Part shown: positions 45,763-64,000 of the stretch, piece by piece
Position numbering within the stretch: position 1 is the first letter of the stretch
Layout of the letters: the number at the start of each line of letters is the position of its first letter
Source: Anaerolineae bacterium
Lineage (GTDB): Bacteria > Chloroflexota > Anaerolineae > Anaerolineales > UBA4823
Direction of reading: 5' to 3'
Length of the DNA stretch: 64,000 nt
Assembly (NCBI GenBank): GCA_003327455.1
Contig: QOQU01000004.1
Coordinates: 390,042-454,041 of the forward strand
The notes under the pieces: model-generated
Seen by the model: the letters and a program-made list of their open reading frames with translations, nothing else
Told to the model about the DNA's origin: nothing
Databases searched by the model: none
Made by a program: the position numbers and the translations under genes

Positions 45763-46928
45763 TAGATTATTTGTTCTAAAGCGAGTTGAGCTCCCGATAA
45801 TGCCTTGCGAGGAGAGACTTCGCCAATGAAAGCTGAGTATATCGCGGGATAAAGGACCCCCAAAATTTTACCCAATTTCGGGGTTGATGGTAGAGTACTA
45901 CATCGCTGAAGCATTTTCATTTGAGTCTTCAGCCAGGCATATCGTTTGAAGTTAGTCTCTGTATAGGTGCTATTACGGACCGGACTACCAGCTAACTCGA
46001 GAACCTTTTGATCGATTGCTTGCCAGGCTATGGAGAGCAGGTGTTCTGTGGTTTGAGTTATTAAGGAGGCGGGTTGGTTGGCAGGTATGCCAATTCCCCA
46101 TGTGGCGTTCCATGGGGTGGAATACAAGGCAGTGGAATACCTCATCGCAGCCCCCTCTGCATATATGGGAGCTGCCTGTCCTCCCCATGTCGGGGCGATA
46201 CAGACCAAACTGGCACGCAGAACCGCAGCGATCTCATTGTTTCCAAAGCGATGGGTCTCCGGTGGACAGAATTGGCGGAGGTTACAATATACCTCAAGAG
46301 CAGAAACACTTGCGTCGCTATAGATAATTGGTTTTGATTCATTGTCCAGTACATCTCCCCCAAAATCCCAGAGAAAAGGTAACCAATCCAAAAAAATTTC
46401 ACTGGGTGAAGCCTTCAGGGCCAATCCGTATAAAGAGGGAGGATGGTGTACACTGGCTACAAGTTGCTCGAGGTTCTTGGGAGATATAAATGGAATTTCT
46501 TCTTCCGTCTCGACTTCAAGATGAATTTTATCCTTAAGATAAAAAAGGATATGTCCATCTGTAAAAAAAGGGATTAAGAACCATTCTTCTTCATAGAAAC
46601 ATTCCGAACGCACCTTTGGAAAGACATCATCCAGATTGAACTGGGATAATAATTCGGATGAGACTCTCTGGACAGGTAGAGGAGCAACTTTTTTTTCTTC
46701 AACCAATGTAGATAACCAAACATGACCTGGAATGAAAACAGCTTGAAAGGGAGATTGAGATTGGTTTAGTGCGTCATTCAGAGTGTTTTGATAGTTGTCC
46801 CAGGGAACAATCGTCAGGTGGAGGTTCGCTCCTGGATGTGTCTTTATATATTCGCTTAATGCTTCCAATGCCGGATCATCAGGCCCAAGGATGTGAAAAA
46901 TCATTTCTTGCTCCTTCGAGTGAATCAA
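45762..46928 (-). CDS. MalE-fold (family 1 solute-binding-protein-like) protein without a signal peptide
   Basis: 388 aa. HLTIVPWDNYQNTLNDAL, FFTDGHILFYLKD, LDWLPFLWDFGGDV and TPWNATWGIGIPAN resemble SBP_bac_1/8. The N-terminus MIHSKEQEMIFHILGPDD has no hydrophobic leader or lipobox. Confidence 0.65.
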   Translation of the reverse strand: MIHSKEQEMIFHILGPDDPALEALSEYIKTHPGANLHLTIVPWDNYQNTLNDALNQSQSPFQAVFIPGHVWLSTLVEEKKVAPLPVQRVSSELLSQFNLDDVFPKVRSECFYEEEWFLIPFFTDGHILFYLKDKIHLEVETEEEIPFISPKNLEQLVASVHHPPSLYGLALKASPSEIFLDWLPFLWDFGGDVLDNESKPIIYSDASVSALEVYCNLRQFCPPETHRFGNNEIAAVLRASLVCIAPTWGGQAAPIYAEGAAMRYSTALYSTPWNATWGIGIPANQPASLITQTTEHLLSIAWQAIDQKVLELAGSPVRNSTYTETNFKRYAWLKTQMKMLQRCSTLPSTPKLGKILGVLYPAIYSAFIGEVSPRKALSGAQLALEQII

Positions 46929-48076
46929 TTACACCATGCATATTTACAAACCAGATCGCGAAAGATACGGCTACTTTCGATCAAATCCCGGCCATGACGG
47001 TGGAGATCTCCACCAATTAAAAGCACAACATCCCTCCCATAAAACTCAACCAACTCATGGATGACTTGCAATTTCATACCGCCGGCGGGAGCGGGGAAAA
47101 TGGGCTTAATGTTTGCCATCGGGTCACTGGCACCCTTAATGATCTCCTTACACTCATCCTTTGAAAATGAGAACCGTCCCCCATAATTTGGAAAAATCAC
47201 AATATCTGCACCAGCCAATCGAGCCAATTGTCCAAAGAGGGCGTAGTGCGAGATGCCACTGTTGGGATTGGTTACAAAACTACCCAGAAAAGAGGGATGA
47301 AGTAGAATTGGTAGAGAAAGCTCTGGATCATTGGCCAGTTCTTGTACATGATCAAAACCGACGATCCCGGCTGAGATCAACAACCCTCCAGCACCTGCGT
47401 TCTTAGCGTAATACGCTCTTTCTCGAAGCTCAATTGTTGGAGCAGTGACATTCGGCACATAAATCGCATGTTCACCTGTTTCCCGGTTCGCTTTTTGAAT
47501 CGCTTCAACACAACGAGAAACCCTATCCTTGAAGGGAGAAAAAGGCTGGTTAGCGATGCCGTGATCGTCTTTGATAATATCAATACCTCCTCTAGCAAAC
47601 TGGTAGACGAGGTTGGCTAAATCCTGGTTGGACAATCCCATGGGTTTGACAGCTGTGCAAAGTAACGGACGATTATGAATATTCAATAGCTCCCGAATCC
47701 CGGCAATACCGTAGCGAGGGCCGGTAAACAGGTGATGAAGTTGTGAGGAAAGATTGATTCTTTCTACTCGAATCCCCGGTTTCAGACTAATATTGCCAAA
47801 AATGACATTCAGGAATTGGGTTATTTCATTAGATGCAATTTCCTCCGCAAAACTAATCTCAACTTCATAGCCAAGCGGGGTTTCTGTGAATCTTTCGATC
47901 CTCCCAAAGATGTGTCTTCGGATATCATCGTCAGGAACCAGGTCTGCAGGGAACTCAACGGTTTGTTCGATGCAAATATCTTCGGCTTTTCGATAAGCCT
48001 CGTCACGATCACCACTCAGGGAATAAACTATCGAAAAACGGTTTCCGCTAAGTTGCAACTGTGTCGGTGACAACAT
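46925..48076 (-). CDS. Form IV RuBisCO-like protein (RLP)
   Basis: 383 aa with large-subunit landmarks: TAVKPMGLS (KPK position), GGIDIIKDDHG (carbamyl-Lys/metal site), APAGGM and LLIGGDLH (phosphate-binding Gly pairs). Several RuBP-specific residues are replaced, so it is not a carboxylase. Confidence 0.88.
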   Translation of the reverse strand: MLSPTQLQLSGNRFSIVYSLSGDRDEAYRKAEDICIEQTVEFPADLVPDDDIRRHIFGRIERFTETPLGYEVEISFAEEIASNEITQFLNVIFGNISLKPGIRVERINLSSQLHHLFTGPRYGIAGIRELLNIHNRPLLCTAVKPMGLSNQDLANLVYQFARGGIDIIKDDHGIANQPFSPFKDRVSRCVEAIQKANRETGEHAIYVPNVTAPTIELRERAYYAKNAGAGGLLISAGIVGFDHVQELANDPELSLPILLHPSFLGSFVTNPNSGISHYALFGQLARLAGADIVIFPNYGGRFSFSKDECKEIIKGASDPMANIKPIFPAPAGGMKLQVIHELVEFYGRDVVLLIGGDLHRHGRDLIESSRIFRDLVCKYAWCN

Positions 48077-49083
48077 CAGAGCGCCTCTGCCTTAGATTCG
48101 CTATGAATTGGTTCTATACGTACTTCTTTTAATTCTTCTTCATCAACACCAAGTGAATTCCCAATCAGGCTCTCAATGTGACGGATCAGAGACATTGCAT
48201 CGATTTCATAGTATCTCATTAGATAGGGGCGGCTTCCGCCGTGGGCAAAAGTATCCTTCAGTCCAATGCGGATCAGGCGTTTATTTAGACCGCTTTCGGC
48301 AAGCGCCTCTGCAACTTCGCTCCCAAGTCCACCAATGATGGTGTGATTTTCCATCGTGATGACACCATATTTGACTTGTGAAGCGACTTCCACAATCTCT
48401 TTCTGGTTGAAGGGTTTATGGGTGGAGATATGTAAATGCGAGATTGAAATGCCTCTGGTTTGTAGTACCTGGGTGGCTCGCATTGCTTCCTCCGTGCAAA
48501 TTCCACTGGAAAAAAGAGCAATATCATTGCCGGTCGAAAGTACCCTTGCCTTGCCAATTTTGAGTGGTTCTGAAGGAGGAAAAAGGCGAGGGATCTCACC
48601 TCGTAATTGTCTAACATAAACCGGCCCGGGGATTTCATGGATTGCCTCAAAAATGCTTTCGACTTCTGTTGCATCGCCTGTTTCAAGAACAGTCATATTC
48701 GGGATAGCGCGTAAGATGGCGATATCGTCAATTGCCTGGTGGGTAGCTCCGCCAGGGGTAGTTATGCCCGGTAAAAAGCCAAATATCCTAACCGGTAGAT
48801 TTGGATAGGCTACCGAGATCGTGATCTGATCCAATGCCCTGCGGTAGAGGAACACAGCGAACGTATGAACAAAAGGAGTATAACCCTCCCTCGCCATACC
48901 GCCAGCAACGCTCATCATATTTTGTTCAGTCATACCAAAGGAGAAAAAACGTTCGGGGTAGGCATCTCGGAACAGCTCGATCTCGGTTGAGCTAGTGAGG
49001 TCAGCCGAGAAGACAACAACGTATGGTTTGTCTTTTGCCCATTCGACCAGTTTTCTAGCATGAACTTTTGATTCGATTCGCAT
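48076..49083 (-). CDS. Transketolase, C-terminal (pyrimidine-binding) subunit
   Basis: 335 aa: FSADLTSST...FFSFGMTEQNMMSVAGGMA..G..PFV.TFAVF is the split transketolase B-chain pattern. Confidence 0.9.
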   Translation of the reverse strand: MRIESKVHARKLVEWAKDKPYVVVFSADLTSSTEIELFRDAYPERFFSFGMTEQNMMSVAGGMAREGYTPFVHTFAVFLYRRALDQITISVAYPNLPVRIFGFLPGITTPGGATHQAIDDIAILRAIPNMTVLETGDATEVESIFEAIHEIPGPVYVRQLRGEIPRLFPPSEPLKIGKARVLSTGNDIALFSSGICTEEAMRATQVLQTRGISISHLHISTHKPFNQKEIVEVASQVKYGVITMENHTIIGGLGSEVAEALAESGLNKRLIRIGLKDTFAHGGSRPYLMRYYEIDAMSLIRHIESLIGNSLGVDEEELKEVRIEPIHSESKAEAL

Positions 49084-49085
49084 AT

Positions 49086-50009
49086 TTATCCTTCCTGAAG
49101 CTTATGGAGATAATCTTGGTAACGCTGACGCTCACTCTCATCTCGAAAACGGATGTAATGAAGTTTTGGAGCCCTTTCTTCAAGTAGAGGAATACCTTGA
49201 CAGGGATTTGTCCGAGCAATGACGAATAGCGGACGTCCATCCGGCGTTTCCTCGGCTGGGGCAGCCAGAGCTTCGACGTCATGGCCTTCTACTTCGTATA
49301 CCCGAGCTCCAAAAGCCTTTAATCTTTCTTGTAATGGCTCAACATTCATGACCTTTTGGATCTCCCCATCTGCAGATTGGCCATTTGCATCAATATACAC
49401 TCCTACTGTATCCAACTTATAGAAAGATAAGGTTTCAACAGCTTCCCATGTTTGTCCAATCTGAAATTCTCCATCGGACATAAAAACCCAATTTCTCCCG
49501 GTGTGACCTTTAAGCCGCCTGGCGAGTGCAATACCAACAACCTGACTGAGTGCCTGCCCTAAGGAACCAGCCATGATCTCGTGACCGGGAGAATGTTCAG
49601 CACCGATCATTTCCACTGTACTGCCATCTTTGTTGAACATATCCAAACCTTCTGGAGCCATCCGGCCAAGTTCTACTAAAAGAGCATAGAGAGCCAGAGC
49701 ACAATGAACAGGTGAAATAAAGAACCGATCAAACTCCGGGAGCTTTGGACCGTTATAGGCAGCGCCAGTGAAATAGTTGCGGTTCGTCCTACCAGGAGTA
49801 CCGGGAAATGGCGGGGGAATTAAAGGCGCTTCGCTTCGCCCTAGCTTCATAATCTTTACATATAAAGTGGCTAAGATCTCTGCCGAAGAGCAAGCTTGAC
49901 TGAGGTAACCACCATTATTTCGGATTGTAAAATCCAGGACCCTTTTTCGAATTCCATGTGCTACTCGTTGTGCCTGTTCCTGCCAACTCTCAGTGTTGAT
50001 ATTTGTCAT
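49086..50009 (-). CDS. Transketolase, N-terminal (TPP-binding) subunit
   Basis: 307 aa: GGYLSQACSSAEIL, HSPGHEIMAGSLGQALS, and the TPP motif FMSDGEFQIGQTWEA...IDANGQS. Confidence 0.9.
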   Translation of the reverse strand: MTNINTESWQEQAQRVAHGIRKRVLDFTIRNNGGYLSQACSSAEILATLYVKIMKLGRSEAPLIPPPFPGTPGRTNRNYFTGAAYNGPKLPEFDRFFISPVHCALALYALLVELGRMAPEGLDMFNKDGSTVEMIGAEHSPGHEIMAGSLGQALSQVVGIALARRLKGHTGRNWVFMSDGEFQIGQTWEAVETLSFYKLDTVGVYIDANGQSADGEIQKVMNVEPLQERLKAFGARVYEVEGHDVEALAAPAEETPDGRPLFVIARTNPCQGIPLLEERAPKLHYIRFRDESERQRYQDYLHKLQEG

Positions 50010-51073
50010 TAGATTGCTCCTGATAGTGTTTTTTTCATCAAATGAGCCAGGCTTTCCTCATATGGAGGATACGCAACCCCCACTTCCGTTATGATCGCCG
50101 TAATGTATCTGGCAGGGGTGACATCGAAGGCATAGTTCAGCACAGGAGAGCCATCAGGGACGATCTGTTCGTCCCCAACATGGGTGATCTCATCAGGGGA
50201 ACGCTCCTCTATCGGAATGGCTTCGCCGTCAGGAATACTCAGATCAATTGTGCTGGTCGGTGCGGCAACATAAAAGGGAACGCCGTGTTCTTTGGCAACA
50301 ATGGCGAGATTATAGGTCCCAATTTTGTTGGCAGTGTCGCCGTTGGCAGCGATTCGGTCGGCGCCAACCACACACAAATCAATCCCTACTTTCTTCATCA
50401 CATAGCCAGATGCGCCATCTACAATAACCGTATGCGGAATACCCAATTGGTTTAACTCCCACGCAGAAAGTCTGGCCCCCTGTAATCTGGGTCGGGTTTC
50501 GTCTAGATAGGCATGAACTCGTTTGCCTTTTTCGTGCGCAATGCGGATAATCCCCAACGCAGTACCGTAATCAACGGTAGCCAGACTGCCGGTATTGCAG
50601 TGATGCAGAATTTTCGCCCCATCGGGGATTAAGGGATCTGCATTGTATCCAATTTGCTTGTTGGCGCGAATATCCTCTTCGGCGATCTCATGTGCCTCAG
50701 ATAGAACAATTTTACGGAGGGCCGGAATATCCTGGGGATTTTCCCGGTTGACCTTTTTTAAGACCCGTTCGATTGCCCAGGCCAGATTCACAGCGGTGGG
50801 ACGTGATTGACGGAGGACTTCGGCGGCTTTCGTCAGGTCTTCCTTGAGTGCCTCTACTCTCGAAGCCGAAGATTGGTTGCAAGCCAGCGCTAAACCATAA
50901 GCTGCAGCAGCGCCGATCGCTGGCGCGCCGCGAACGATCATGCTTTTGATGGCTTCGGCGACTTGATGGTAATCAGTTAGCTCCAGGTATGCAACTTCCT
51001 TCGGTAACTTTCTTTGGTCAATCAGCCAGAGTGCGTCATTCTTCCATTCAATGCTTCTAAAGGTAGTTGTCAT
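50009..51073 (-). CDS. mtnA: S-methyl-5-thioribose-1-phosphate isomerase family (eIF-2B alpha/beta/delta-like)
   Basis: 354 aa: VRGAPAIGAAAAYG, HCNTGSLATVDYGTALG, and VGADRIAANGDTANKIGTY, the family signature. Confidence 0.9.
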   Translation of the reverse strand: MTTTFRSIEWKNDALWLIDQRKLPKEVAYLELTDYHQVAEAIKSMIVRGAPAIGAAAAYGLALACNQSSASRVEALKEDLTKAAEVLRQSRPTAVNLAWAIERVLKKVNRENPQDIPALRKIVLSEAHEIAEEDIRANKQIGYNADPLIPDGAKILHHCNTGSLATVDYGTALGIIRIAHEKGKRVHAYLDETRPRLQGARLSAWELNQLGIPHTVIVDGASGYVMKKVGIDLCVVGADRIAANGDTANKIGTYNLAIVAKEHGVPFYVAAPTSTIDLSIPDGEAIPIEERSPDEITHVGDEQIVPDGSPVLNYAFDVTPARYITAIITEVGVAYPPYEESLAHLMKKTLSGAI

Positions 51074-51111
51074 GGGAAACCTCCAAATAAAGCAATTGAC
51101 AAGGGCTGTAG

Positions 51112-52341
51112 TTATATAAATGGATAACTGGACTTTGATTCCAGCATCATCTCAACAGCCTCATCGATCGAGAATACTTTCCGACGATTCTTAAGCCAAT
51201 TCACCGCTATATTGATGCCAATGCTTTCACTGATTGCGCGGATTTCCTCATTATCAATAGTCCAAAAATCGTGAACATGTGCCATGCCGATTAATCTTCG
51301 TAACATTTCGGCAGCTCCAAACCCAAGCGTTTCCTGGAGTAGTTGTTGAATGTATTTCTTGCGGAATGAGGGAGAAGGCCAGTCATCGTTCCCCTCATTC
51401 TCCCATAAGGTTAGAAATTCGTTTTCGAACACACGCCACGTATCTTTGACTAATTGAGCGAGCCAAAGGCGATACTCCTTACGCACCGTTTCATCCCTGG
51501 CATGAAATTCCTGCGAAGCATAAGAGAGGGCAAGATTAGCAATATAAGAACCTATATCATGGGCAATCGGGCCGAAGAATGCAAATTCTGGATCGACTAC
51601 TTTTGTTTCGTGCTCATTGAGCATAATCGAACCCGTGTGGAGATCGTTATGGATTAATGCTTGAGCATGGGTCATATAAAGTTCTTTCAACTCAAAGATT
51701 TCACTGCGTAAATCGTCATCTTGATGAATCTGGCGCACTTGCGGTTCTAATAATTTGCTCCAGCGATTGTTGGGGTGATCCATATATGGTTGAGTGAAGA
51801 CAAGGTCTTCTTGAACCTTACACAGGACAGGATTGATAAACTTTGGAACCATCGCCTTTTTTTCGCCAGAACTCAAATACAAATCGCTGGTATAGAATAA
51901 TGTTCGAGCCATAAACGTCCCGATATGGTTGGCTACCAGCGGATAACGAATTTGCTTCATCAAACCTTCGCGCATAACTAAATGCTGGTTCAAATCTTCG
52001 ATGATTAAGATGTGTTTTTCTTCGTCAAAGTGGTAGATTTCCGGCACTTGTTGAGGACAGTAACGGCCTTCGATCGTCAGGACCTCATACTCAATCCGAG
52101 AACGATCGAGGGGCATTTTAAAATCAGGATAACGCCATGCATAAGGTAAAGCCTGCTTAACAATCACCGATTTATGGATGGGATCATGCTCAGAACTTAC
52201 TCGAAAAAGAAGATTAACATTTCCCTCGGCAATCTGCTGACTTTTCAAGTCGTCGTTCCCATCAAAAATATGGCTAAAGACCGAGGTTTGCTTGATATAG
52301 TCAATAACAGTTTGTTCGTTTAGAGCTTGTGAATCAGTCAT
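51112..52341 (-). CDS. mtnK: 5-methylthioribose kinase family
   Basis: 409 aa: EGNVNLLFRV, VKQALPYAWRYPDFKMPLDRSRIE and the catalytic loop LIHNDLHTGSIM, the MtnK/APH-fold pattern. Confidence 0.88.
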   Translation of the reverse strand: MTDSQALNEQTVIDYIKQTSVFSHIFDGNDDLKSQQIAEGNVNLLFRVSSEHDPIHKSVIVKQALPYAWRYPDFKMPLDRSRIEYEVLTIEGRYCPQQVPEIYHFDEEKHILIIEDLNQHLVMREGLMKQIRYPLVANHIGTFMARTLFYTSDLYLSSGEKKAMVPKFINPVLCKVQEDLVFTQPYMDHPNNRWSKLLEPQVRQIHQDDDLRSEIFELKELYMTHAQALIHNDLHTGSIMLNEHETKVVDPEFAFFGPIAHDIGSYIANLALSYASQEFHARDETVRKEYRLWLAQLVKDTWRVFENEFLTLWENEGNDDWPSPSFRKKYIQQLLQETLGFGAAEMLRRLIGMAHVHDFWTIDNEEIRAISESIGINIAVNWLKNRRKVFSIDEAVEMMLESKSSYPFI

Positions 52342-55057: not shown

Positions 55058-55369
55058 TTATTGTTGGACTAAGGTACACATCCAGGGGAACCAATTGAGG
55101 GAGGACTCGCCGAGAGCCGGCAGGGCTTTGATCAACTCGTCCATGTTGGTGATGTTGTTCTCAAGGAGGAACTGACGGGTGATCAACTCCGGGCGGACGA
55201 GCAGGTATTTATCCACTTTTTCGCCCGCAACAAGGGCAGCCGCGGTGCGAACAGCCAGACGACCAACGCTATAGGAGTCGGTCGCAACAGTAGCTTCCCA
55301 AGGACTGTCAGGCTGAATCATCAACTGGATATCTTCATTGGTAATGTCAACAGAATAAACCTTCAGTAT
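55058..55369 (-). pseudogene. C-terminal about 100-codon remnant of a CUT2 periplasmic sugar-binding protein (5' end missing)
   Basis: The open frame reads ILKVYSVDITNEDIQLMIQPDSPWEATVATDSYSVGRLAVRTAAALVAGEKV..., an RbsB-like C-terminal lobe. An in-frame TAA at 55370-55372 bounds it upstream. No signal peptide or N-lobe exists upstream, and the sequence changes to AT-rich island DNA. Confidence 0.7.
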
Positions 55370-55436
55370 TTAGGAATCGCTTAAATTTAGATTCGCTACC
55401 GTTCATTCTAATTATTATAATCAAATGAATGCTCGT

Positions 55437-55475
55437 GTAAAAATTAACACTGGGAATTTATAACATCCCAGTGTT
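55437..55475 (-). terminator. Rho-independent terminator ending the island operon
   Basis: Minus strand: AACACTGGGA-10 nt loop (contains the TAA stop)-TCCCAGTGTT (55446-55475), followed by AATTTTTTA. Confidence 0.8.
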
Positions 55476-56357
55476 TTTAAGCTCATCTTCAGACAGTTCC
55501 AGTTTACACACAAAACACCTGCCTACAGTTAAAAATTGCCCGCTCAGGTCGTCTTCCGATTCTGTATAAAGCTTAAGAACGCAAAAAGAAGCATTACCAC
55601 AGGCAGGACATTCCATACTGTCACGTACAATCTCCCTTTCATCATAGGAAGAACGGATGTTTATTTTTTTTCTTTCCTCAATTAATTCAGGATTTAGTTC
55701 GCTATATTCTTCCTTCTTTTCCCTTATTTTTTGGCTTAGGGTATCAGATTGCTGTCTTGTGAGTTCTTCTTCCTTTGCCTTAAGTTTCTCAAAAACAGTC
55801 TCATTAAAAATGTCTTCATATTTGTACGCATCAGATACTTCCTGAATCATTTCCCGAATAAAGGGTAATATTTCATTAAGAATAAACAAACCCTCATCTA
55901 CAGGGTTAAAATAATACTCGAAATAGTGGACAATATTGTTACGCATGTTGCCTAATCGAACTAGGGCCGCTTTTCTTCTGTCCCGCTCTTCGCGAATTCT
56001 TTTCAATTCGTGCTTATCCGTAACAGCCTCGTCCTCTTCAATGTTTAGATTAAACATCGCTTCGTATCGTGAAATAACTTCATTGTACGGAATGGTAAGA
56101 AAGGTCTCGCGCCTTTCTTTACGGGTCATAAGGTTTTGTCTCGACTGGATATTTTTAACTTTATCCTGAAGCTTCTTAAACCTGACCAGATGTTCTACAC
56201 TGTTATTTTTATCCAGCACCAGCACATCGTCAAGCTCACATAAACGCTGTTTCATAAGCCGCTCAACGGCCACAGCAAATAGTACAACCGACAGCTCAAA
56301 ATGCTCGCTGTCAATAAAATATCTCAGCGCTTCGGACAGGATAACCGAGGTGTGCAT
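55458..56357 (-). CDS. HEPN-like (Rx4H) protein with a coiled-coil and a C-terminal zinc ribbon
   Basis: 299 aa. R139-N-N-I-V-H144 (nt 55926-55943, CGTAACAATATTGTCCAC) sits in the context LVRLGNMRNNIVHYFEY. A K/E-rich helix spans residues 190-235. CPACG...CFVC lies at residues 250-284. Its ATG shares one nt with the hsdMS stop (TAATG at 56355-56359). Confidence 0.6.
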   Translation of the reverse strand: MHTSVILSEALRYFIDSEHFELSVVLFAVAVERLMKQRLCELDDVLVLDKNNSVEHLVRFKKLQDKVKNIQSRQNLMTRKERRETFLTIPYNEVISRYEAMFNLNIEEDEAVTDKHELKRIREERDRRKAALVRLGNMRNNIVHYFEYYFNPVDEGLFILNEILPFIREMIQEVSDAYKYEDIFNETVFEKLKAKEEELTRQQSDTLSQKIREKKEEYSELNPELIEERKKINIRSSYDEREIVRDSMECPACGNASFCVLKLYTESEDDLSGQFLTVGRCFVCKLELSEDELKNTGML

Positions 56358-59095
56358 TACTCTCCAAACACCTCCCTGTCCAGAATCATTTTTATGGTCT
56401 GTTTTGCGTTTTCCTTTAGCCTTCTGATATTGGTCAGCGTTTCAAACTGAACGTTAAGGAAATCCACTATTTTCTGCTGTTTTTCAATTGGAGGAAGCGG
56501 AACTTTAATATAACTTAAATCGGTTTGAGTTATTGATGGATATTGAGATTTTTCCATCAACTTAGTTAACTCAGATACGAATATATCAGATAGAACATAG
56601 AAGAATAAAAATCTAGGCAGTATTACTTCATTTTTGCTCCTTAATACAGCAAAACCTGTAGAACATATTTGGTTATTAAATCTCTCGTCATCAATTATAC
56701 AAAAACTCTTTAAGTTAGGCCGAACAGTAGAAATTAAAACATCGCCAATTTTTACAACTCGTCTTGCTCTACTTGGTGCATTCTTGCCACTAATAAACTT
56801 ATAATCAGTTATCGTGAAGGTTTTATTATCAACAGAAGAAATATCTATGTAGATAAACTCTTTTTCAGGCTCATTTTCGGGATTCATGCTTTCGGGATTA
56901 ATCTCTACGACATCTGGCAACTCCACCCATTCCCAATCTCCTTCAAAAATACTGTCGTCGATTCCAGCTTCAAGAATGGTCTTTTCCATAGCATTGCACT
57001 GCTCAATAATAGCCTGCTGCTTGTCCAAGCGGGCAACCAGTTCCTGTTGAACGGGAAGAGGTGGGAGAGGGATTTGAATATTGGCTAAATCATCAAATTT
57101 CAAAGTATCCCTAATACTTCCAGAAACTGCTTCATTGATTTTGTTCATCATCCAATCTGTTTTCAATAAATAATACAGAAATCTTGAATCTGTAGTTTTA
57201 CTATCTTTTACTTTAAATACTACATAAGCAGGGCTTACAAGACCTTTAACCACGTTATCAGCAAATCCTATAGAACCTATATTAATTCTGTAAGGATTAT
57301 AAACAAAGTAATCTTTATATATTATCTTATAGCTATTAAGGTTTTTAGCATATACTTCTTCGTTATTTCCATATACGTTTTCTTTAAAATAATCTTCTGC
57401 AGGAATTATCCCGAACTCTTTACTAACACTATAAACTGGCAATTCTTCGGAAAGCACATTTCTATCCGTAATTTGTTCAATGATTTCTCCCAGTCTAACA
57501 ATGTTATGTTTCCTACTTTGGCAGATCAAATTTTTATACAGCCCCGGGTTAAGGTTATAATTTTTTGCTTTGATTTCCTCAATCGTCGCCGCCCAGCAGA
57601 AATCATTATCTATAAAATCAGGCGGTTCCTTTGTTGGGTTATCAATCCAATCTATCCATCTTCTAAACACTTCCACCGCTTTAGGCAGGTTCCCACAAGG
57701 CGGTTCGTAAATGTTCGGGTCATCACCCTGGAAAGCTCCGTTAATTGGCCTTCTCTGGGTTGTTAAGGTAAATCCGTCATCTTTCACATCAACAAACAGC
57801 ACCTGCTTTGTGGTGTAAGCATTTTGTTTCTTTGTCTCGTTCCATTCTTCTTTTGTGGGTTTTTCAAAATACAGCACTGTCGTTTTGACACCGGAATACG
57901 GCTGAAAAATGCCTGCCGGCATGGAAAAGACAGCTTTCAAATCAAATTCGCGCAGGAGCTTCATGCGTATATTCTTGAATACAGAGGAATTGTCAAACAG
58001 AATCTTGTCCAAGATTATAACTACTGCCCTGGAACGTTTTTTACCTGGTTCAGAAGGTCTTAATGCCGCCATAATATGCTGGATGAACAATGCTTCGTAG
58101 CGTTTGGCATGGAACTCAAAAGTACCAACCCGCGACTGAGCAAGTGGACCATACGGTGGGTTAGTTAACACTACATCATACTTTTCTTTATGTTCTAACT
58201 GTGCTCGATTGTCTAAGCTGTCAGCCTCAAAGAGGTTGGATTTGCCGTCATTGTGCAATATCATATTCATGAGGGCAAGCTTGTAAACGTCTGGAGCCTT
58301 CTCCACAGCATAAAGAGACTCTTCCTTCAGTTTTCGGTAAAGCATTTCAGCTTCATCAAATTGAACCCCATTATATGCGGCAGTAGACTCGTTAACTCTC
58401 ATCCCCGCTTTTACAAGATTATCAATTTTACTCTTTACTACTTCGAAGGCACGCAGAATAAAGCCTCCCGTACCAGCCGCAGGGTCATATATTTTTTCCC
58501 CAATTTCCGGGTCAGCAAGTTCCACCATGAAATGAATGATGTGGCGAGGAGTAAAATACTGACCGTACTGTTTTTGTTCGCCAAGCTTTTGAACAACAAA
58601 TTCGTATGCTCTGCCCATAACGTCAAAATTTTGTTCAAGCTCAAGGTCTTTCAGCCGTTTTATCAATTCTTTAATGGTCGGGCTGTACCTTATACGCCAT
58701 ATATGATTTTTAAATAGCCGTCTGAAAAGGCTTAAATCCCTGCCATCGTGGTCCTTAACTTCGGCCAGTTCGGAAAATATGTTTCTAACATAATCGACTA
58801 TAGTAAACTCTCCATCGTCAGTCTTTACGGTTTTTCCGTCACTTGCCAAAATCTTTTCTGCCCATGTGGAAAACCTCAGGTGATTTGGTAAATCAGGCAC
58901 AAATTTAGTTCCATCCAAACGGGCGAGTTCTTCTCTTTGTTTTTCTCTCTCGTCAAAGAGCTTTAGAAACAAAAAATAGCTAAATTCTTCCAGATACTCG
59001 GTGGTTTTGAGAGTATCGTCTCGAAAAATATTGGCAATATCCCAAAGCTCAGAACCAAGCCTGTGAAAATCTACTTTGTTATTGTTTTGCGCCAT
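56357..59095 (-). CDS. Type I-like R-M methyltransferase fused to a two-TRD specificity subunit (HsdM-HsdS fusion)
   Basis: 912 aa. HsdM_N-like N-terminus, SAM motif I DPAAGTGGF and motif IV LTNPPYG. These are followed by two target-recognition domains, each ending in an HsdS conserved helix (IQIPLPPLPVQQELVARLD and IKVPLPPIEKQQKIVDFLN). Confidence 0.85.
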   Translation of the reverse strand: MAQNNNKVDFHRLGSELWDIANIFRDDTLKTTEYLEEFSYFLFLKLFDEREKQREELARLDGTKFVPDLPNHLRFSTWAEKILASDGKTVKTDDGEFTIVDYVRNIFSELAEVKDHDGRDLSLFRRLFKNHIWRIRYSPTIKELIKRLKDLELEQNFDVMGRAYEFVVQKLGEQKQYGQYFTPRHIIHFMVELADPEIGEKIYDPAAGTGGFILRAFEVVKSKIDNLVKAGMRVNESTAAYNGVQFDEAEMLYRKLKEESLYAVEKAPDVYKLALMNMILHNDGKSNLFEADSLDNRAQLEHKEKYDVVLTNPPYGPLAQSRVGTFEFHAKRYEALFIQHIMAALRPSEPGKKRSRAVVIILDKILFDNSSVFKNIRMKLLREFDLKAVFSMPAGIFQPYSGVKTTVLYFEKPTKEEWNETKKQNAYTTKQVLFVDVKDDGFTLTTQRRPINGAFQGDDPNIYEPPCGNLPKAVEVFRRWIDWIDNPTKEPPDFIDNDFCWAATIEEIKAKNYNLNPGLYKNLICQSRKHNIVRLGEIIEQITDRNVLSEELPVYSVSKEFGIIPAEDYFKENVYGNNEEVYAKNLNSYKIIYKDYFVYNPYRINIGSIGFADNVVKGLVSPAYVVFKVKDSKTTDSRFLYYLLKTDWMMNKINEAVSGSIRDTLKFDDLANIQIPLPPLPVQQELVARLDKQQAIIEQCNAMEKTILEAGIDDSIFEGDWEWVELPDVVEINPESMNPENEPEKEFIYIDISSVDNKTFTITDYKFISGKNAPSRARRVVKIGDVLISTVRPNLKSFCIIDDERFNNQICSTGFAVLRSKNEVILPRFLFFYVLSDIFVSELTKLMEKSQYPSITQTDLSYIKVPLPPIEKQQKIVDFLNVQFETLTNIRRLKENAKQTIKMILDREVFGE

Positions 59096-59109
59096 TAATA
59101 TTCCCTCCG

Positions 59110-61335
59110 TTACACATCAAGAAATGATACTGCTTTTATCTCGTCATAAAGCTGAACAAATTTGTCCAGCGAACCGAATAGTCCCTTTATCCGGGCAATT
59201 CCACCCTTTTGTTGAAGAAGCTGGCTGTTAGAAAACTGGGTAAAGGTAAGAGCGGGATTGCGTTTCTTAAAATCGTAGAACATCATAATAAATTCCACTT
59301 GTTCATCGTTCAAATGCTTTTTCTCCTTCAAATGAGCAATAACAGCATCCCTGTTCTTTTCTTCAACAGTCTTAAACCTTGTTTTACCAAGGGCGACATC
59401 AATAAAATCTTTGTAAGTGGCAGTGACTTCGCCGTAAATATCCCTTAAGGTACTGATGTCAAACCCAAAAGCCTCAAGATATTTTTCATCAACCGGAATA
59501 CCAGGATTCAAAGCTTCCCATGATAAAACTGCCTGAACAAATCTTTCTTTTAAAACCGTCTTTTCTTTAATAGCTTTAAGTTGCGGCTCAATTTGCTTTC
59601 TAATATGCTCAAAAGCAGATGAAGTAACAATTTCTGACTTGACTATCCAGACGGGGACATCAGCAATCACCATTTCGATTTTTTCAGTTTCTTTAGGTTC
59701 CTTACCCTCACCATCTTCTTTATCTGAAGGCATCTTTTCACCGTCAGAAGATACCTCTGTTTCTTCAGTGCTCTCTATTATTTCGTCAGTTTCTAAAGTT
59801 TCATCAGTAACAACCTCTTCAATACCTGCAAGGTCAACAAAGTCGATAAGTTTAAAGCTTTCCTTTGTCTTGCCGTGTTCTTGCTCGTTACACTTACGAG
59901 TGGCACGTCCTTTCATTTGAACATAGAGAATTTTTGACTTTGTGGGCCTAGCCATTACAAGAACTTCGATGTCAGGAGCATCAATACCGGTGGATAGCAT
60001 ATCTACGGAAACGGCAATACGAATTTCACTGTCGATTTCCTGAAACTTTCTAATCAGTTCAGAGGCGTTTCTCACCTGATTATGTATTACAACTATAAAG
60101 TCTTCTGCTTCGCTTGAGTCCTTTGGGAGTTTGTTCAGTTCGTTGTATTTTGTTATCAACGCATCGCGCAAATGATTGGCATGCGCTATGCTTGCCGCAA
60201 AAACCAGTGTCTTTGGAATCGTATGCGTCTGCTCATATCCTATTACTTCAAAATATTTTTCGGCTATTAATTCATTCCTTCGCGGGACATCCACACGTCT
60301 GCCAAGGTCTTCCGGCTCAAAGTCAAAACCCATGTCATGAATTCCGCTGAGGTCTACATTGGTCAGGAACTTATATCTCTCGGTAAAAGCCAGTATGCCG
60401 TCTTTAACTCCCTGATAGTAGCTGTATCTGAATACCGGCTCTCCAAAATAATCGTCGGTACTCTGCGTTTCCTTATCAGAAGGAGTTGCTGTTAACCCTA
60501 AAACTTTGGCCTTGCCAGTTCTGAAATGCTCAATAACCGTGTGCCAATCTCCAAAATATGACCGATGGCACTCGTCAAGAATTACCAAGTCAAAAAAATT
60601 ATTCGGGTATGCACGATACTTATCATTTACATACAAAAACTGAATTGTTGAAACAGAAATATCGTTATATTTATCCTCTTTTGTGCCGGTCAAGCGGTTT
60701 ATTTTAAAGGTATCACCTAATACCTTATTGAAAGAACGGACTGTCTGTTCAGCAAGAGAATCCCTATCTACTAAAAATAAGACTCTCCGAACAAGGCCGA
60801 CTTTGTAAAGCTTGCTGATTATTCCCGCCGCTGTTATCGTTTTTCCTGTTCCGGTAGCCATTTCGATATAGGTTCTGTCTCTGCCTAATTGAAATGCGCT
60901 TACCACCTGTGAGACGGCAATTTTTTGATAATTCCTTAAACCCGCCAAAAGAATATCAGTTTCCGGGTTTAGAAAATCTTTTATCTCTGCATAGGTCATT
61001 AGCCTGCTGATTTTTTCTGGTCTGGTATTTGCTTTAAGATTCTGCCGGTAAAATACCTTGCCGTCTGAAGCAAAAATTAAAAAGACTTCCTTGCCACTTT
61101 CATTTAGTTTTTTTGCGTAATTTTTAGCCTGTGCTAAAGCTGCGTTTAAATCCATACCCTGTTTTTTGGCTTCAATAATTGCAACAGGTAAGCTGTTCAC
61201 TAAAATAGCATAGTCTGCTCTTTCTCCGCCCGGTATAGGATACTCCTTAGTTATTTGAGTAAAATCAGCCAAATTCCAATTTAGTGCTCTTAAATGTTCG
61301 TCAATTAAGGACTTTGCATTTTCCTCCGTATTCAC
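59110..61335 (-). CDS. hsdR: Compact HsdR-like restriction subunit (PD-(D/E)xK nuclease plus SF2 helicase)
   Basis: 741 aa with a GTG start after GGAGGG. Nuclease motif ADYAIL...IIEAKK. Helicase motifs MATGTGKT (I), LDECHRS (II), LTATP (III) and QMKGRATR (VI). The acidic C-terminal region has an EcoEI_R_C-like tail. Confidence 0.85.
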   Translation of the reverse strand: MNTEENAKSLIDEHLRALNWNLADFTQITKEYPIPGGERADYAILVNSLPVAIIEAKKQGMDLNAALAQAKNYAKKLNESGKEVFLIFASDGKVFYRQNLKANTRPEKISRLMTYAEIKDFLNPETDILLAGLRNYQKIAVSQVVSAFQLGRDRTYIEMATGTGKTITAAGIISKLYKVGLVRRVLFLVDRDSLAEQTVRSFNKVLGDTFKINRLTGTKEDKYNDISVSTIQFLYVNDKYRAYPNNFFDLVILDECHRSYFGDWHTVIEHFRTGKAKVLGLTATPSDKETQSTDDYFGEPVFRYSYYQGVKDGILAFTERYKFLTNVDLSGIHDMGFDFEPEDLGRRVDVPRRNELIAEKYFEVIGYEQTHTIPKTLVFAASIAHANHLRDALITKYNELNKLPKDSSEAEDFIVVIHNQVRNASELIRKFQEIDSEIRIAVSVDMLSTGIDAPDIEVLVMARPTKSKILYVQMKGRATRKCNEQEHGKTKESFKLIDFVDLAGIEEVVTDETLETDEIIESTEETEVSSDGEKMPSDKEDGEGKEPKETEKIEMVIADVPVWIVKSEIVTSSAFEHIRKQIEPQLKAIKEKTVLKERFVQAVLSWEALNPGIPVDEKYLEAFGFDISTLRDIYGEVTATYKDFIDVALGKTRFKTVEEKNRDAVIAHLKEKKHLNDEQVEFIMMFYDFKKRNPALTFTQFSNSQLLQQKGGIARIKGLFGSLDKFVQLYDEIKAVSFLDV

Positions 61336-61356
61336 TATTTTCCCTCCCCTCGATAA

Positions 61357-61896
61357 TTAGCGGTAATCCAACCCCAAAAATTGCTGGATGTCCTTCATCT
61401 CCATCAGTTCTTCAACTGTCCAGTAGCGGTGGAACCGGTCTTTGTAGCGAAGTTCCCACCACCTGCGGAAAAGCGGCTCAAGTTCATCGAACATCGGCCA
61501 GCGGCTCCACTTCATTTTCTCCCTCAGTTCTTCCAGCGTCCAGACACTGCCGTCTTCTTTTTTGGGTATGTTAATGCGCCCGTCAGGTTGGATAACCACC
61601 TGCGGCTGGGCAATCTCTTTTTGGAGAACAGTCACTTCGCCAACCTCCTTTAGATATTTATCGGAAAGAGTTATCAAACAATCAAGCTCAAAGTTTGGTA
61701 ATAATTCTTGTTTTGGGCTTACTGCCTCAAACCGCCGGGTAAGATTTGCTGAAGCCCTGCCGAGCGTGGAACCGTCGTCTACAACGCGGTCCCGCTTCAG
61801 CGGCTTCAGACGAACCCGTCTTTGACCAAGGTCAAAGCTCAAAAATATATATAGCGGTTTTGACATTTTGACCTTCCGTGCGCGGTAAGTGTTCAT
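61357..61896 (-). CDS. Hypothetical Trp/Arg-rich protein (169-179 aa)
   Basis: The ORF overlaps the upstream primase-helicase stop by 4 nt (ATGA). An alternative ATG at 61866 follows GGAAGG. The C-terminus reads WSRWPMFDELEPLFRRWWELRYKDRFHRYW. I recognise no family. Confidence 0.5.
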   Translation of the reverse strand: MNTYRARKVKMSKPLYIFLSFDLGQRRVRLKPLKRDRVVDDGSTLGRASANLTRRFEAVSPKQELLPNFELDCLITLSDKYLKEVGEVTVLQKEIAQPQVVIQPDGRINIPKKEDGSVWTLEELREKMKWSRWPMFDELEPLFRRWWELRYKDRFHRYWTVEELMEMKDIQQFLGLDYR

Positions 61897-63920
61897 TCAC
61901 CGCTGTCTTCATCGTCCGCTTTCCACCCATCGGGCGTCTTTGTAAGAGTGTAAGTTTTTGGAGACCCTTGATGTCCCCCTTCTTCCTCAATGGTGAAGCC
62001 GCCTGCCCGCAGTTTACTGATGTCGTTTCTCACAGTCTGGTCGCTGACCTTCAGTAAGTCGGTTAGCTCTTTCTGCGTGTAGCTCCGCTGTGTCAACAGC
62101 TTCGCCAGCTTCTGCAGGCGCACTTCGCTGTCTTTCAGCTTTATGTTGATGCGGAAACCATCATCGTAAACCAGATTCCCGTCCTCGAATTTTAAGCTCA
62201 AATTCTCTACAGTCTCAGCGTCGCGGAACTCTCCGGTAACAACTACGCCTACATCTTCGTCTTTCTGGAACTTGCGGATGTCTATCACGCCGTCCATTTC
62301 CGCCCCTTTGACAGAAGACCCCCTGCTGGCATACACAAGAACGTCCGACGGCTTTTTTGCGGTGTGGTCAACGACGACGACCGCCATATGGGGGTACTTG
62401 CGGAGGAGCATATTTAGTGGCGCGAATACCTGCTGCATGACGGAAGAGTCGTTTTCGTCTCCATCGAAGAAGCTCCTCAGTGGGTCAAGTACGAGCAGGT
62501 CAGGCCGGAACTCGTCAATAAATTTGAGCAGGTCTTCAAATTCCGGGTTTTTCGGTAGCAGTTTCACGCCTGTCCTGTGCGGAATGACGATGTTGCTTGT
62601 ACCGGCAAGGCTCTGCTGTACTCTCTGGATTAAAGCGTTGGTCGAGTGTTCTTCCTCCACCATAACGGCTTTGATTCCAGAGACGGTAGTTTTCCAAAAC
62701 GGTACCCCGCAGACGTTTTCTCCGCGGCTGAGCGCTTTTAATAAGCTTAGGACAAACCACGTCTTCATCTGCTTCGGCGGCCCTTGGACAAGAATTTTTT
62801 GCCCTCTCGCTATCATCCCTCTTACCAGCCAGTCAGGTTCCGCAGGCTCTCTCTTCAGCAGTTCTTCCACCCTGTAGTAGCGGGAAAACCGGTCTTGGTG
62901 TTCTTCAAGCGGGATTAGCTCTACCAGTTCCTGGTCGGTATGGTTGTTGCGGGTCAACCACTCACAGATGTCTTTCCCGACATCGCCCCGCTTCCACGGC
63001 AGTTCAACCACTTTACACCGTTCTTCTCCCAGCACCGCTAGGGCAGACCTGACAAAGTTCGCGCTGGCGTCGTCGTCCTGCGGGATGAGGTAGATGGTGC
63101 GTATGCCTTCAAATTCCCGTTTCCACTCCTTGCGGAAATTGTTGCCCGGCACGCTAACTACAGGGATGTCTACACCGCAGGCTTCAAGCGCTTGGATAGT
63201 CCTTAGAGCATCGCTTTCTCCCTCTACTATAACTGCTTGGCTCTTCCCCTCAAGACTGTCGAGATTCCACAATGAAAAACGGGAGTTTTTAACCGCTCCT
63301 TTCCTGCCGTCGTAAGCCCTCCCTCTGATAGCCCTGATTTTGCCCCTCACGCGAAAAGGGACTACCAAGCATTCAACCTGTCCTGCATCTTCGTCATGGG
63401 GGACATAACCCCATTCGAAACGCTCCAGCATTTCATACTTGATTCCTCTGGCGGTAATGTACTCTTGGACAATCGGCAGTTCCGGGCGCAGGCGCGCTTT
63501 TGCTTCTTTGATAAACTCTTCAAATTCCTCTTCCTGTCCGGGTGTGGGGATATAGGTGTGGCTGGGGTCGTAGTGGGGGAACGCTCGGAGGTAGCTTCCT
63601 GTCCGTTCGTCTTTTACGTAAAGCTCGCGGAGGTAGTCGTTTATGAAATAGCTCGCGTCTTCCGGCGCAATGCCTGCAATTTCAACTAAAAAGCGGTACG
63701 GCGAAAAGCTCCCGCATACATGGCAGACGTAAAAGCCCGACTTGACGTTGACCGTCGCGGAAGGCTTCCGGTCGCTGTGGTATAAGCACTTTAAAGATTG
63801 GACGGTAAAGCCGTCTTCCTTTATGTCCATCCTGTCCAGTTCAGGAAAATAGCGGGCGTAAAAATCCCGCCAAGGTTCGGGATGAAGAGACTCGTTAAAA
63901 TCAACCCTCCACTTCTTCAT
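61893..63920 (-). CDS. DnaG-type primase (CHC2 zinc finger plus Toprim) fused to a RecA-like/RepA-type ATPase and a C-terminal HTH
   Basis: 675 aa. zf-CHC2 is CLYHSDRKPSATVNVKSGFYVCHVCG. Toprim is AVIVEGESDALR...IPQDDDAS. The P-loop-like segment is VQGPPKQMKTWF and Walker B is DLLVLDPL. The HTH is YTQKELTDLLKVSDQTVRNDISKL. Confidence 0.8.
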   Translation of the reverse strand: MKKWRVDFNESLHPEPWRDFYARYFPELDRMDIKEDGFTVQSLKCLYHSDRKPSATVNVKSGFYVCHVCGSFSPYRFLVEIAGIAPEDASYFINDYLRELYVKDERTGSYLRAFPHYDPSHTYIPTPGQEEEFEEFIKEAKARLRPELPIVQEYITARGIKYEMLERFEWGYVPHDEDAGQVECLVVPFRVRGKIRAIRGRAYDGRKGAVKNSRFSLWNLDSLEGKSQAVIVEGESDALRTIQALEACGVDIPVVSVPGNNFRKEWKREFEGIRTIYLIPQDDDASANFVRSALAVLGEERCKVVELPWKRGDVGKDICEWLTRNNHTDQELVELIPLEEHQDRFSRYYRVEELLKREPAEPDWLVRGMIARGQKILVQGPPKQMKTWFVLSLLKALSRGENVCGVPFWKTTVSGIKAVMVEEEHSTNALIQRVQQSLAGTSNIVIPHRTGVKLLPKNPEFEDLLKFIDEFRPDLLVLDPLRSFFDGDENDSSVMQQVFAPLNMLLRKYPHMAVVVVDHTAKKPSDVLVYASRGSSVKGAEMDGVIDIRKFQKDEDVGVVVTGEFRDAETVENLSLKFEDGNLVYDDGFRINIKLKDSEVRLQKLAKLLTQRSYTQKELTDLLKVSDQTVRNDISKLRAGGFTIEEEGGHQGSPKTYTLTKTPDGWKADDEDSGE

Positions 63921-63948
63921 AATTAAAACCTCCTCTGCCTATGGTAAT

Positions 63949-63977
63949 ATTATACATTTGACCTCAGCAACTTTCAA
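63949..63977 (-). promoter_or_regulatory. Sigma70-like promoter (TTGAAA-17-TATAAT) upstream of the primase-helicase gene
   Basis: On the minus strand the -35 is at 63972-63977 and the -10 at 63949-63954, with a 17-nt spacer. A GAGGAGG RBS follows at 63930-63936 and the ATG at 63920. Confidence 0.55.
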
Positions 63978-64000
63978 TAAGAAGCTCAAAATTTTTGACC

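Follow-up and report, generated by a model that had tools for sequence, protein, structure and literature searches.

A 12.7-kb integrative island in an Anaerolineae chromosome and the predicted type I restriction-modification cassette in its single cargo slot

In this study, we analyzed a 64,000-nt stretch of DNA from an Anaerolineae bacterium (positions 390,042 to 454,041 of contig QOQU01000004.1, here called the window) with respect to five long minus-strand open reading frames (ORFs) that fill positions 55458–63920. They comprise a primase-helicase gene, a small ORF, the type I restriction-modification (R-M) genes hsdR and hsdMS, and a gene for a 299-aa protein with a HEPN-like domain and a zinc ribbon (HEPN-ZnR). 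An earlier note on this DNA had described them as one promoter-to-terminator operon linking replication to restriction. The main finding is that window positions 55361–64000 form the right-hand part, 8.6 kb long, of an integrative element of 12.7 kb. The reading that we favor, and regard as likely, is that of a serine-recombinase island with one cargo slot, in which the R-M cassette would be independent of the primase.

The five ORFs, their spacings, the promoter-like sequence TTGAAA-17-TATAAT and the terminator hairpin were all found as described earlier, and the domain calls for the primase/ATPase/HTH protein, hsdR and hsdMS hold. Also, the proposal that the cassette was grafted onto an integrative-element backbone was borne out, as a recombinase and both attachment (att) sites were found outside the window and the graft points could be placed at ~61367 and ~55416–55440. 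The idea that the link between replication and restriction is functionally meaningful was not supported: unrelated R-M systems occupy the same slot, and the three cassette genes occur without the primase. The link would exist because of how the island is built, with a slot varying in R-M content between copies, and not because of a combined machine. The sequence comparisons thus support grafting, but not a functional coupling to the primase. The positions of the features are given in Table 1.

Table 1. Positions of the genes and other features at the right part of the island and its host junction (window coordinates)
Feature	Position	Strand	Remark
Primase-helicase ORF, 675 aa	61893–63920	−	Backbone
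179-aa ORF as first read	61357–61896	−	Over-long; covers spacer and 92-aa gene
Spacer, 257 nt	61636–61892	−	Conserved, non-coding
92-aa gene	61357–61635	−	GTG start; last backbone gene
hsdR, 741 aa	59110–61335	−	GTG start; cargo
HsdM-HsdS fusion gene (hsdMS), 912 aa	56357–59095	−	Cargo
Gene for 299-aa HEPN-like/zinc-ribbon protein	55458–56357	−	Cargo
Promoter-like TTGAAA-17-TATAAT, rightward (primase) arm	63949–63977	−	In divergent control region of island
Terminator-like hairpin after 299-aa gene	55439–55475	−	End of cassette
Outward promoter-like TTTACA-16-TATAAT	55414–55441	−	11/12; at junction of cargo and right end
Island right end (P arm of attR)	55361–55416	unstranded	Crossover AA at 55361–55362
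3′ remnant of split host periplasmic sugar-binding-protein gene	55058–55324	−	Intact version in L030

Ends, contents and spread of the island

The right boundary of the island lies at 55361/55362 and therefore the entire "operon" is inside the element. Homologous loci are given here by our own numbers. One of them, from another assembly (L001), is an identical copy of the region that runs past the window end and contains the recombinase and the full island. An empty site in the same species (L030) has an intact 388-aa periplasmic binding-protein gene, while the 5′ part of this host gene (290 aa) is found at the opposite island end in L001. The attB sequence reads GAAAAAATC-AA-GGTTTATTC, attL reads ATC-AA-CAGCATTTAGGATTCGC, and attR reads CCTAAATACTG-AA-GGTTTATTC. 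These three sites have just AA in common, which is a 2-bp crossover as expected of a serine recombinase, and the island ends are imperfect inverted repeats (TAGCGAATCTAAA versus TTTAGGATTCGCTA). The element is integrative, its insertion point being an AA dinucleotide within the gene for a sugar-binding protein on the Anaerolineae chromosome. The predicted attP joint, consisting of right end, AA and left end, was found in L044 and L045, two metagenome contigs that carry related elements, but not for the exact copy of the window; members of the family therefore occur as circles or tandem copies. Another candidate for an attP circle (L019), in which the 299-aa gene is joined to the recombinase, was rejected since its recombinase piece is inverted and internal, pointing to a rearrangement or chimera. 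This 1.9-kb contig, in which the copy of the 299-aa gene is 90% identical, was binned as Bathyarchaeota, an archaeal label that is untrustworthy for so short a contig.

The recombinase is a large serine recombinase of 568 aa encoded just beyond the window end (L001 5845–7551), with Resolvase, Recombinase and zinc-ribbon domains (Pfam) and a match to a PHROG integrase (E = 1e-89). In L001 it belongs to a divergently transcribed leftward arm, which also encodes proteins of 89, 130 and 71 aa and a 383-aa LysM protein. The 71-aa ribbon-helix-helix protein gave the only relaxase-related lead, a NikA-like match (E = 1e-4) that is sub-threshold with 22.8 bits against a cut-off of 27 bits. The rightward arm consists of the gene for the primase-helicase with its winged helix-turn-helix (wHTH), a 257-nt non-coding region and the gene for a 92-aa protein, followed by the cargo slot. 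In the 675-aa primase-helicase, a CHC2 zinc ribbon, a Toprim domain, a RepA/DnaB-like AAA_25 ATPase and a C-terminal HTH_11 winged helix were recognized (Pfam, PADLOC, NCBIfam, PHROGs). It would replicate the excised, episomal circle and take no part in restriction.

The island is widespread at high identity. The primase is 96–100% and the backbone 94–100% identical in metagenome-assembled genomes (MAGs) of Bacillota, in Tepidanaerobacter sp. GT38, T. acetatoxydans and Peptococcia (a MAG), and in the complete chromosome of Fervidobacterium gondwanense. Among the right flanks of L001, L017 and L020–L029, ten different sequences follow the AA crossover, and their common context is AT-rich only. 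Because of these ten flanks, target choice by the serine recombinase is, on the aligned junctions, relaxed; this may help the element to live in Chloroflexota, Thermotogota and Bacillota. The element resembles the clostridial mobilizable transposons Tn4451 and Tn5397 with their recombinases TnpX and TndX, which are likewise small and have a large serine recombinase, a relaxed target at a 2-bp core and a circular intermediate. Unlike in those transposons, the core is AA and not GA, a primase-helicase is present and no Mob/relaxase was found. Moreover, the recombinase of the island faces outward at the left end, so that a promoter at the circle junction could not drive it.

To the left of 55361, ordinary chromosomal genes follow, the products of which are on deposit among the proteins of an Anaerolineae MAG. 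They code for the ATPase and the permease of a ribose-type ATP-binding cassette (ABC) transporter, a kinase, an MtnA-like isomerase, a transketolase and a RuBisCO-like protein. The cluster at 44761–52341, which adjoins the ABC transporter disrupted by the island, comprises genes for a SorC-type regulator, a solute-binding protein, the RuBisCO-like protein, a split transketolase, the MtnA-like isomerase and an APH/MTR-kinase-like kinase, and resembles a sugar-phosphate or methylthioribose-type salvage pathway.

A compact core of integrase and primase-helicase with divergent control regions, together with defense cargo in a single hotspot, could also describe a phage satellite of the kind of P4 or the phage-inducible chromosomal islands (PICIs). 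In that case, the primase-helicase would answer a helper phage and the R-M cargo would occupy a satellite defense hotspot. Such hotspots are known from P4-like satellites (PMC13586616), and PHROGs places the primase among phage primase/helicases. Searches with PHROGs and Pfam, however, gave no capsid, terminase small-subunit, packaging or redirecting genes, the attP junction had no match in viral contigs, and the backbone DNA had none in the phage collection. We therefore consider a satellite improbable. In the plasmid collection, no counterpart was found for the backbone DNA, the primase or the 299-aa protein; the sole match in the plasmid and phage collection searches was an ATPase of 25% identity in a Nostoc plasmid.

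The cargo slot and its type I cassette

The slot became visible in copies of the island with other cargo. The backbone homology of L020, L022–L025 and L027–L029 spans the primase, the spacer and the 92-aa gene and stops at window position 61367 (61355 in L025); this graft point falls within the final three codons of that gene. At this junction, the window reads GGGTTGGA followed by TTACCGCTAA, whereas the copies with other cargo have GGGTTGGA followed by GAGCGGTTAA. Homology resumes at a right-end segment ending in the AA crossover, which in the window covers about the last 55 nt (55416–55362), and the other graft point was mapped to ~55416–55440. In L022 and L025, this right-end segment could not be located.

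Between these points, the type I trio of hsdR, hsdMS and the HEPN-ZnR gene is present on the same strand as the primase in the window and in L001, L002, L003, L009, L017 and L021. In other copies, the same strand carries a nuclease-methyltransferase of 681–784 aa (type IIB/G-like) with an S subunit (L020, L028 and L025), a 676-aa N6/N4 methyltransferase and more (L022), a 443-aa protein of unknown function (L024) or four small ORFs (L045). Cargo on the opposite strand was found in L023 (type III Mod and Res) and in L029 (a C5 methyltransferase, FokI-like and Mrr-like endonucleases and an HhH-GPD glycosylase). The cargo has a GC content of 34–40%, except for L022 with 51%, compared to 52% for the backbone. 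According to these alignments, one cargo slot between the 92-aa gene and the conserved right end is a general feature of the island design. Three further loci (L004, L006 and L007), considered as cases of the same primase before different genes, were rejected, as BLAST identified the same sequence, cut by contig ends and spacer indels.

In the window, the GC content is 52.1% for the primase gene, 48.9% for the 179-aa ORF, 39.4% for hsdR, 38.4% for hsdMS and 39.3% for the 299-aa gene, and it ranges from 33 to 43% in sliding 500-nt windows of the cassette. The break in base composition reported earlier is thus real, but the 28–35% quoted for the cassette was too low, since its genes have 38–39%.

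These data bear directly on the interpretation given first, in which the five genes form one purpose-built unit that either ties defense to induction of the element or uses the primase/ATPase as a defense component. The genes share one strand and are tightly spaced between one strong promoter and one terminator, and all five are found together at 97–100% identity in at least seven loci from three phyla. In addition, PADLOC reports a weak DnaG-like match of the primase to a model associated with DRT ('RTasDnaG-like', E = 3.6e-9). As this match covers the Toprim domain only, it was not taken as a defense role. The expected synteny elsewhere was indeed found, but movement of the whole island accounts for it and the genes are also found apart. 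R-M systems unrelated to the trio follow the same primase and 92-aa genes in other copies, and in L023 and L029 they lie on the opposite strand. The trio in turn occurs without the primase, namely in L018 and L010 and, with ~50% divergence, in L038 and L039. Furthermore, expression of a type I system at induction only would leave the chromosome unmethylated between inductions. A purpose-built unit therefore appears very improbable.

The cassette itself has the components of a type I system. HsdR contains HSDR_N, ResIII, Helicase_C and EcoEI_R_C domains (Pfam; PADLOC REase_I, E = 1.5e-49), with a PD-(D/E)xK nuclease motif (D..EAK) and an SF2 motor. It is of the EcoAI/EcoEI kind, yet no equivalog, as its best NCBIfam match (EcoAI/FtnUII) reached 278 bits compared to a cut-off of 550 bits. 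The HsdM-HsdS fusion contains HsdM_N, N6_Mtase (E = 4e-49, with an NPPY motif) and two Methylase_S stretches, and PADLOC assigned MTase_I (E = 7e-101) and Specificity_I (E = 1e-51). In every copy, M and S are encoded in one ORF of 870–914 aa and not as the separate subunits of an M2S1 core. Both target recognition domains, TRD1 (57083–57534) and TRD2 (56510–56918), are swapped among otherwise ~99% identical copies (L002, L003, L010, L017 and others), as seen from gaps in the BLAST maps. This replacement between copies indicates a recent switching of the predicted specificity. Replacement of recognition domains is the usual route by which type I systems change specificity.

A fusion of HsdM and HsdS was engineered for EcoKI, found to be functional with HsdR and named 'type IMS' (Roberts et al. 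2012, PMC3510504). The window system is like it in that a single polypeptide comprises M and S with two TRDs, while HsdR is a protein apart. In contrast to the engineered protein, the fusion is natural and kept in all copies as well as in ~50% identical homologues; HsdR is EcoAI/EcoEI- or IB-like below the equivalog cut-off, and the gene order is R, MS, HEPN.

Several loci contain the trio outside the island. In Caldalkalibacillus thermarum (L018), it is intact at 95–97% identity in a segment equivalent to window positions 61404–55440, without primase. Because the last 37 nt of the 92-aa gene remain there, this cassette probably came from such an island. In L010, an insertion sequence (IS) element truncates the island at 61732 and unrelated sequence lies upstream, so that the trio stands without the primase. 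More distant relatives are chromosomal and likewise without primase: in L038 and L039, homologues of the 299-aa protein with ~50% identity are encoded after an hsdR of 743 aa and an hsdM-S fusion of 899–903 aa. Judged by these arrangements, the cassette is a system of its own, independent of the primase. As an observation apart, L008 (8922–10900 of the 23-Mb record FZPS01000029.1) has a transposase gene beside a 359-aa HsdS gene that stands alone and precedes a 99% identical copy of the 299-aa gene, and so represents a piece of the cassette in a further setting.

The third cassette gene encodes a protein with an N-terminal HEPN-like domain, a coiled linker and a C-terminal zinc ribbon with four Cys, which resembles those of RNA-polymerase subunits. 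No family above threshold was found for it in Pfam, PADLOC or NCBIfam, and the protein family is small, with 27 cluster representatives at E ≤ 1e-3 among 1.84 billion. E32, K36, R139 and H144 (RNxxxH) and the four Cys are invariant in an alignment of 15 sequences with identities as low as 19–23%. R139-N-x3-H144 agrees with the Rx4-6H motif of the HEPN superfamily, and E32 and K36 belong to the first helix. Seven of these 15 matched PF18735 HEPN_RiboL-PSP below the gathering score (best E = 8e-5), two DUF3644 and one HEPN_MAE_28990, with the sub-threshold matches falling over residues ~30–170. An AlphaFold2 (AF2) model of the domain had a predicted local distance difference test (pLDDT) score of 88, and its Foldseek matches, most of them HEPN proteins, were headed by Csm6 (probability 0.85), HEPN toxins and the HEPN protein 2hsb (TM 0.66), all with E ≥ 0.3; with the AF2 model of the whole protein, the Foldseek matches were noisy. 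A profile of the family had no significant match to PDB sequences. The linkage of the 299-aa gene to hsdR and hsdMS holds at ~50% identity. Taken together, the protein is predicted to be HEPN-like with a zinc ribbon.

Linkage to R-M systems has been described for at least 16 HEPN clades, which were read by analogy with PrrC (Anantharaman et al. 2013, PMC3710099). Among them, a DUF3644-overlapping clade (EC042_2821-like) with zinc-ribbon (ZnR) fusions occurs in R-M operons (PMC3710099). In PrrC/EcoprrI, too, an Rx4H (HEPN-type) protein, here an anticodon nuclease, is encoded in a type I R-M operon and translationally coupled to it. Nucleases of the PrrC/RloC kind have an ABC-ATPase domain N-terminal to the nuclease domain; the linked R-M enzyme keeps them silent and anti-restriction proteins set them free. 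The 299-aa protein differs from PrrC in that it has no ABC-ATPase domain and no sequence similarity to PrrC, its HEPN domain is N-terminal and followed by the coiled linker and the four-Cys zinc ribbon, and its nearest sub-threshold families are HEPN_RiboL-PSP and DUF3644. By analogy, it may work like PrrC although it is not a member of the PrrC family. We tentatively suggest, with somewhat more doubt than trust, that HEPN-ZnR could be an accessory RNase restrained by the R-M complex and serve, as PrrC does, as a fail-safe when restriction is blocked.

The non-coding spacer and transcription of the cassette

The small ORF of 179 aa had been read as a gene overlapping the primase gene by 4 nt. 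The ORF and the ATGA overlap (61893–61896) are present, but the true gene has 92 aa, lies 257 nt from the primase gene, and the overlap is peculiar to the window copy. Upstream of 61636, the 10 other copies differ by indels of +2, −1, −2, +7, −1, +2, +1 and 4 nt, which include a length change of a (TA)n run and a duplication of CTTTGAG and break the frame of the 179-aa ORF. In the window copy only, the spacer reads as the first ~85–87 codons of this ORF; its mean column identity across 11 copies is 93%. Downstream of 61635, there are zero indels, and 16 of 24 substitutions are in codon position 3, as is typical of coding DNA. The start codon at 61635 is a GTG after AAAGGAGG (TTG in most copies), and a 92-aa product is called in Fervidobacterium (L017). 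By this pattern of substitutions, the 179-aa ORF is not a conserved gene at full length and the true gene is that of 92 aa at 61357–61635. As a homologue query, the 179-aa ORF yielded just four fragmentary matches, which is consistent with the N-terminal half not being a gene. For the 92-aa protein, no family match was obtained. It shares a 16-residue motif (DRFxRYxxVEEL; pairwise E = 5e-4) with the linker between Toprim and ATPase of the primase (residues 341–356, 62853–62900), and a natural hybrid (P0124) has a primase fragment fused to the 92-aa protein.

The 257-nt spacer is conserved more strongly than the flanking genes despite the (TA)n, 1-, 4- and 7-nt indels. It contains GGTCAAA repeats, TTTGAGCTT repeats, the (TA)n run and the palindrome CTTTGACCTTGGTCAAAG. 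All four TTTGAGCTT copies of the window fall in 61684–63990, and both motifs, GGTCAAA and TTTGAGCTT, recur around the primase promoter (63949–63990). A structured RNA was rejected as an explanation, since no Rfam match at E ≤ 1 was found and folding z-scores were −1.8 and +0.3; a role at the DNA level is favored. With about equal weight for and against, we propose that the repeats could serve as an origin, or else as an operator to which the primase binds through its wHTH.

With respect to transcription, TTGAAA-17-TATAAT (63977–63949) matches the consensus at 11 of 12 positions and has the top sigma-70-like score of the region. In an alignment of 9 island copies, its hexamers and the flanking GGTCAAA and TTTGAGCTT motifs are unchanged. 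At the other end, the terminator hairpin has a 10-bp stem, AACACTGGGA-(10 nt)-TCCCAGTGTT, followed by AATTTTT, with the stop codon within the loop, and folds with a minimum free energy of −17 kcal/mol (z = −3.6); the automatic terminator scan overlooked it (55475–55439) owing to the long loop. The hairpin travels with the cassette and is kept in L018, where the cassette homology stops at 55440. Within the unit, six terminator-like sites were counted compared to 9.3 ± 3.0 in shuffles, and all of those on the minus strand lie in coding DNA, in agreement with the earlier statement that no internal terminators were seen. Promoter-like sites in the unit (23 compared to 16.7 ± 4.4 in shuffles) were not above expectation; internal ones such as 58287–58260 (10/12) were dismissed for this reason and as intragenic.

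The gaps between the genes are short. Ribosome-binding sites are present in the 21 nt that precede the hsdR start codon GTG (GGGGAGGG) and in the 14 nt between hsdR and hsdMS (CGGAGGG), and hsdMS and the 299-aa gene overlap by 1 nt (TAATG), indicating translational coupling. The arrangement on the same strand, with short gaps and without internal terminator, fits an operon; but the 257-nt non-coding spacer follows the primase gene. Because the 21-nt hsdR leader is too short for a promoter and a consensus scan of the minus strand from 62189 to 61335 turned up no sigma-70-like site scoring 9/12 or better, the cassette is probably transcribed from backbone signals. Having no promoter space of its own, it would be read through from the backbone and end at its own hairpin. 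A single transcript from the primase promoter is plausible from the arrangement of sites, and read-through driven by this promoter seems to us slightly more probable than another source, such as an unrecognized promoter in the spacer or within the 92-aa gene. Expression of the cassette would be expected to be constitutive because the chromosome must stay methylated and induction-only expression is hazardous for a type I system. It is established R-M biology that a type I system expressed only at induction leaves the chromosome unmethylated in between.

The same requirement can be turned in favor of two transcription units, in which the primase is transcribed from 63977–63949, and the 92-aa gene and the cargo from a 'cargo promoter' in the spacer, comparable to Pc of integrons. 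Constitutive methylation needs a promoter that is not switched off with the replication gene, and the spacer hardly varies among 11 copies although it does not code for protein. Also, the cargo in the window (after 21 nt), L022 and L024 starts shortly after the 92-aa gene and hence needs upstream signals, and a weak TTGATT-17-GATAAA (8/12) precedes the ribosome-binding site for the 92-aa product by 20 nt. Against this, no site of at least 9/12 was found at 61336–61892 on the minus strand and no terminator after the primase gene, and the conserved repeats suit an origin or operator equally well. Two units are thus a possibility to be taken seriously, though a doubtful one.

Between the cassette terminator and the right end, TTTACA-16-TATAAT (55414–55441) faces out of the island, toward the remnant of the binding-protein gene and the ABC-transporter genes of the host. 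At this position, TTTACT-17-TAGAAT is found in other copies of the island. By its sequence and orientation, this promoter-like site may restore expression of downstream host genes after insertion.

Weight of the reading, related elements and biological meaning

Several points count against the favored reading of a serine-recombinase island with an independent cassette, or against steps of it. The single-transcript step rests on a sigma-70 consensus scan, while the element's three host phyla may have other promoters, and the 257-nt spacer could conceal a promoter, for example TTGATT-17-GATAAA at 8/12, that splits the unit. The role of the spacer repeats as origin or operator is putative. Every HEPN assignment is sub-threshold, with Pfam scores of 14–22 bits compared to the 28.4-bit cut-off and Foldseek E ≥ 0.3. 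Searches of the element with PHROGs and Pfam found no relaxase or packaging gene by which it could be transferred. The host assignment is based on a MAG, though the contig has 458–569 kb.

Among known elements, R-M genes are the cargo of most islands that combine a large serine recombinase with a helicase/primase (PMC10061031). Islands of the staphylococcal cassette chromosome (SCC) kind share with the window element a large serine recombinase beside a replication operon (helicase preceded by or fused to primase), insertion in the 3′ part of a host gene, variable cargo that is often R-M, and an excised form that is probably replicative (PMC10061031). Unlike SCC, the window element is not located at rlmH or ssrA but in a Peripla_BP gene, with ten insertion sites overall, and it has one recombinase instead of ccrAB. 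Its primase is DnaG-kind fused to a RepA-like AAA_25 ATPase and wHTH, neither Cch/MCM-like nor a PolA-SSB pair. It also has a single fixed cargo slot, and its hosts are Chloroflexota, Thermotogota and Bacillota. As the rlmH site, ccrAB and Cch are missing, the element is not an SCC. Pipolins (PMC11551731) and P4-like satellite hotspots (PMC13586616) are similar in combining a minimal maintenance core with an exchangeable defense module, whereby near-identical cores have different cargo. In contrast to these, the window element lacks piPolB and P4 genes and has a serine instead of a tyrosine recombinase. Moreover, the annotated cargo of its family is almost only R-M (types I, II, IIB/G and III), with one small cassette per copy.

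The R-M system would defend the host and stabilize the element. A broader proposal, which we hold to be rather unlikely, is that this is an undescribed family of very small serine-recombinase and primase elements which would act as dedicated R-M shuttles crossing phyla (Chloroflexota, Thermotogota and Bacillota, at >95% nucleotide identity). Their fixed slot would take promoter-less R-M cassettes expressed from backbone signals as in an integron, and the type IMS cassette would add a HEPN-ZnR fail-safe of the PrrC kind. If this were true, R-M dosage would track copy number and state of the element.

The tempting view of a replication-coupled restriction machine lacks support; there remains a well-delimited defense cargo in the fixed slot of a minimal mobile element. 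What keeps its interest is the cross-phylum spread of a minimal element almost wholly devoted to R-M cargo, and the conserved pairing of HEPN-ZnR with a type IMS system of natural origin. The near-identity of copies in an Anaerolineae MAG, Fervidobacterium and Tepidanaerobacter suggests that genes have moved between phyla very recently within communities of thermophilic anaerobes. As R-M types and HsdS recognition domains are swapped among the copies, these provide a natural series for the study of cargo exchange. Also, the natural HsdM-HsdS fusion together with HEPN-ZnR offers a tractable three-gene system for the long-standing proposal that R-M-linked HEPN RNases are back-up suicide effectors.

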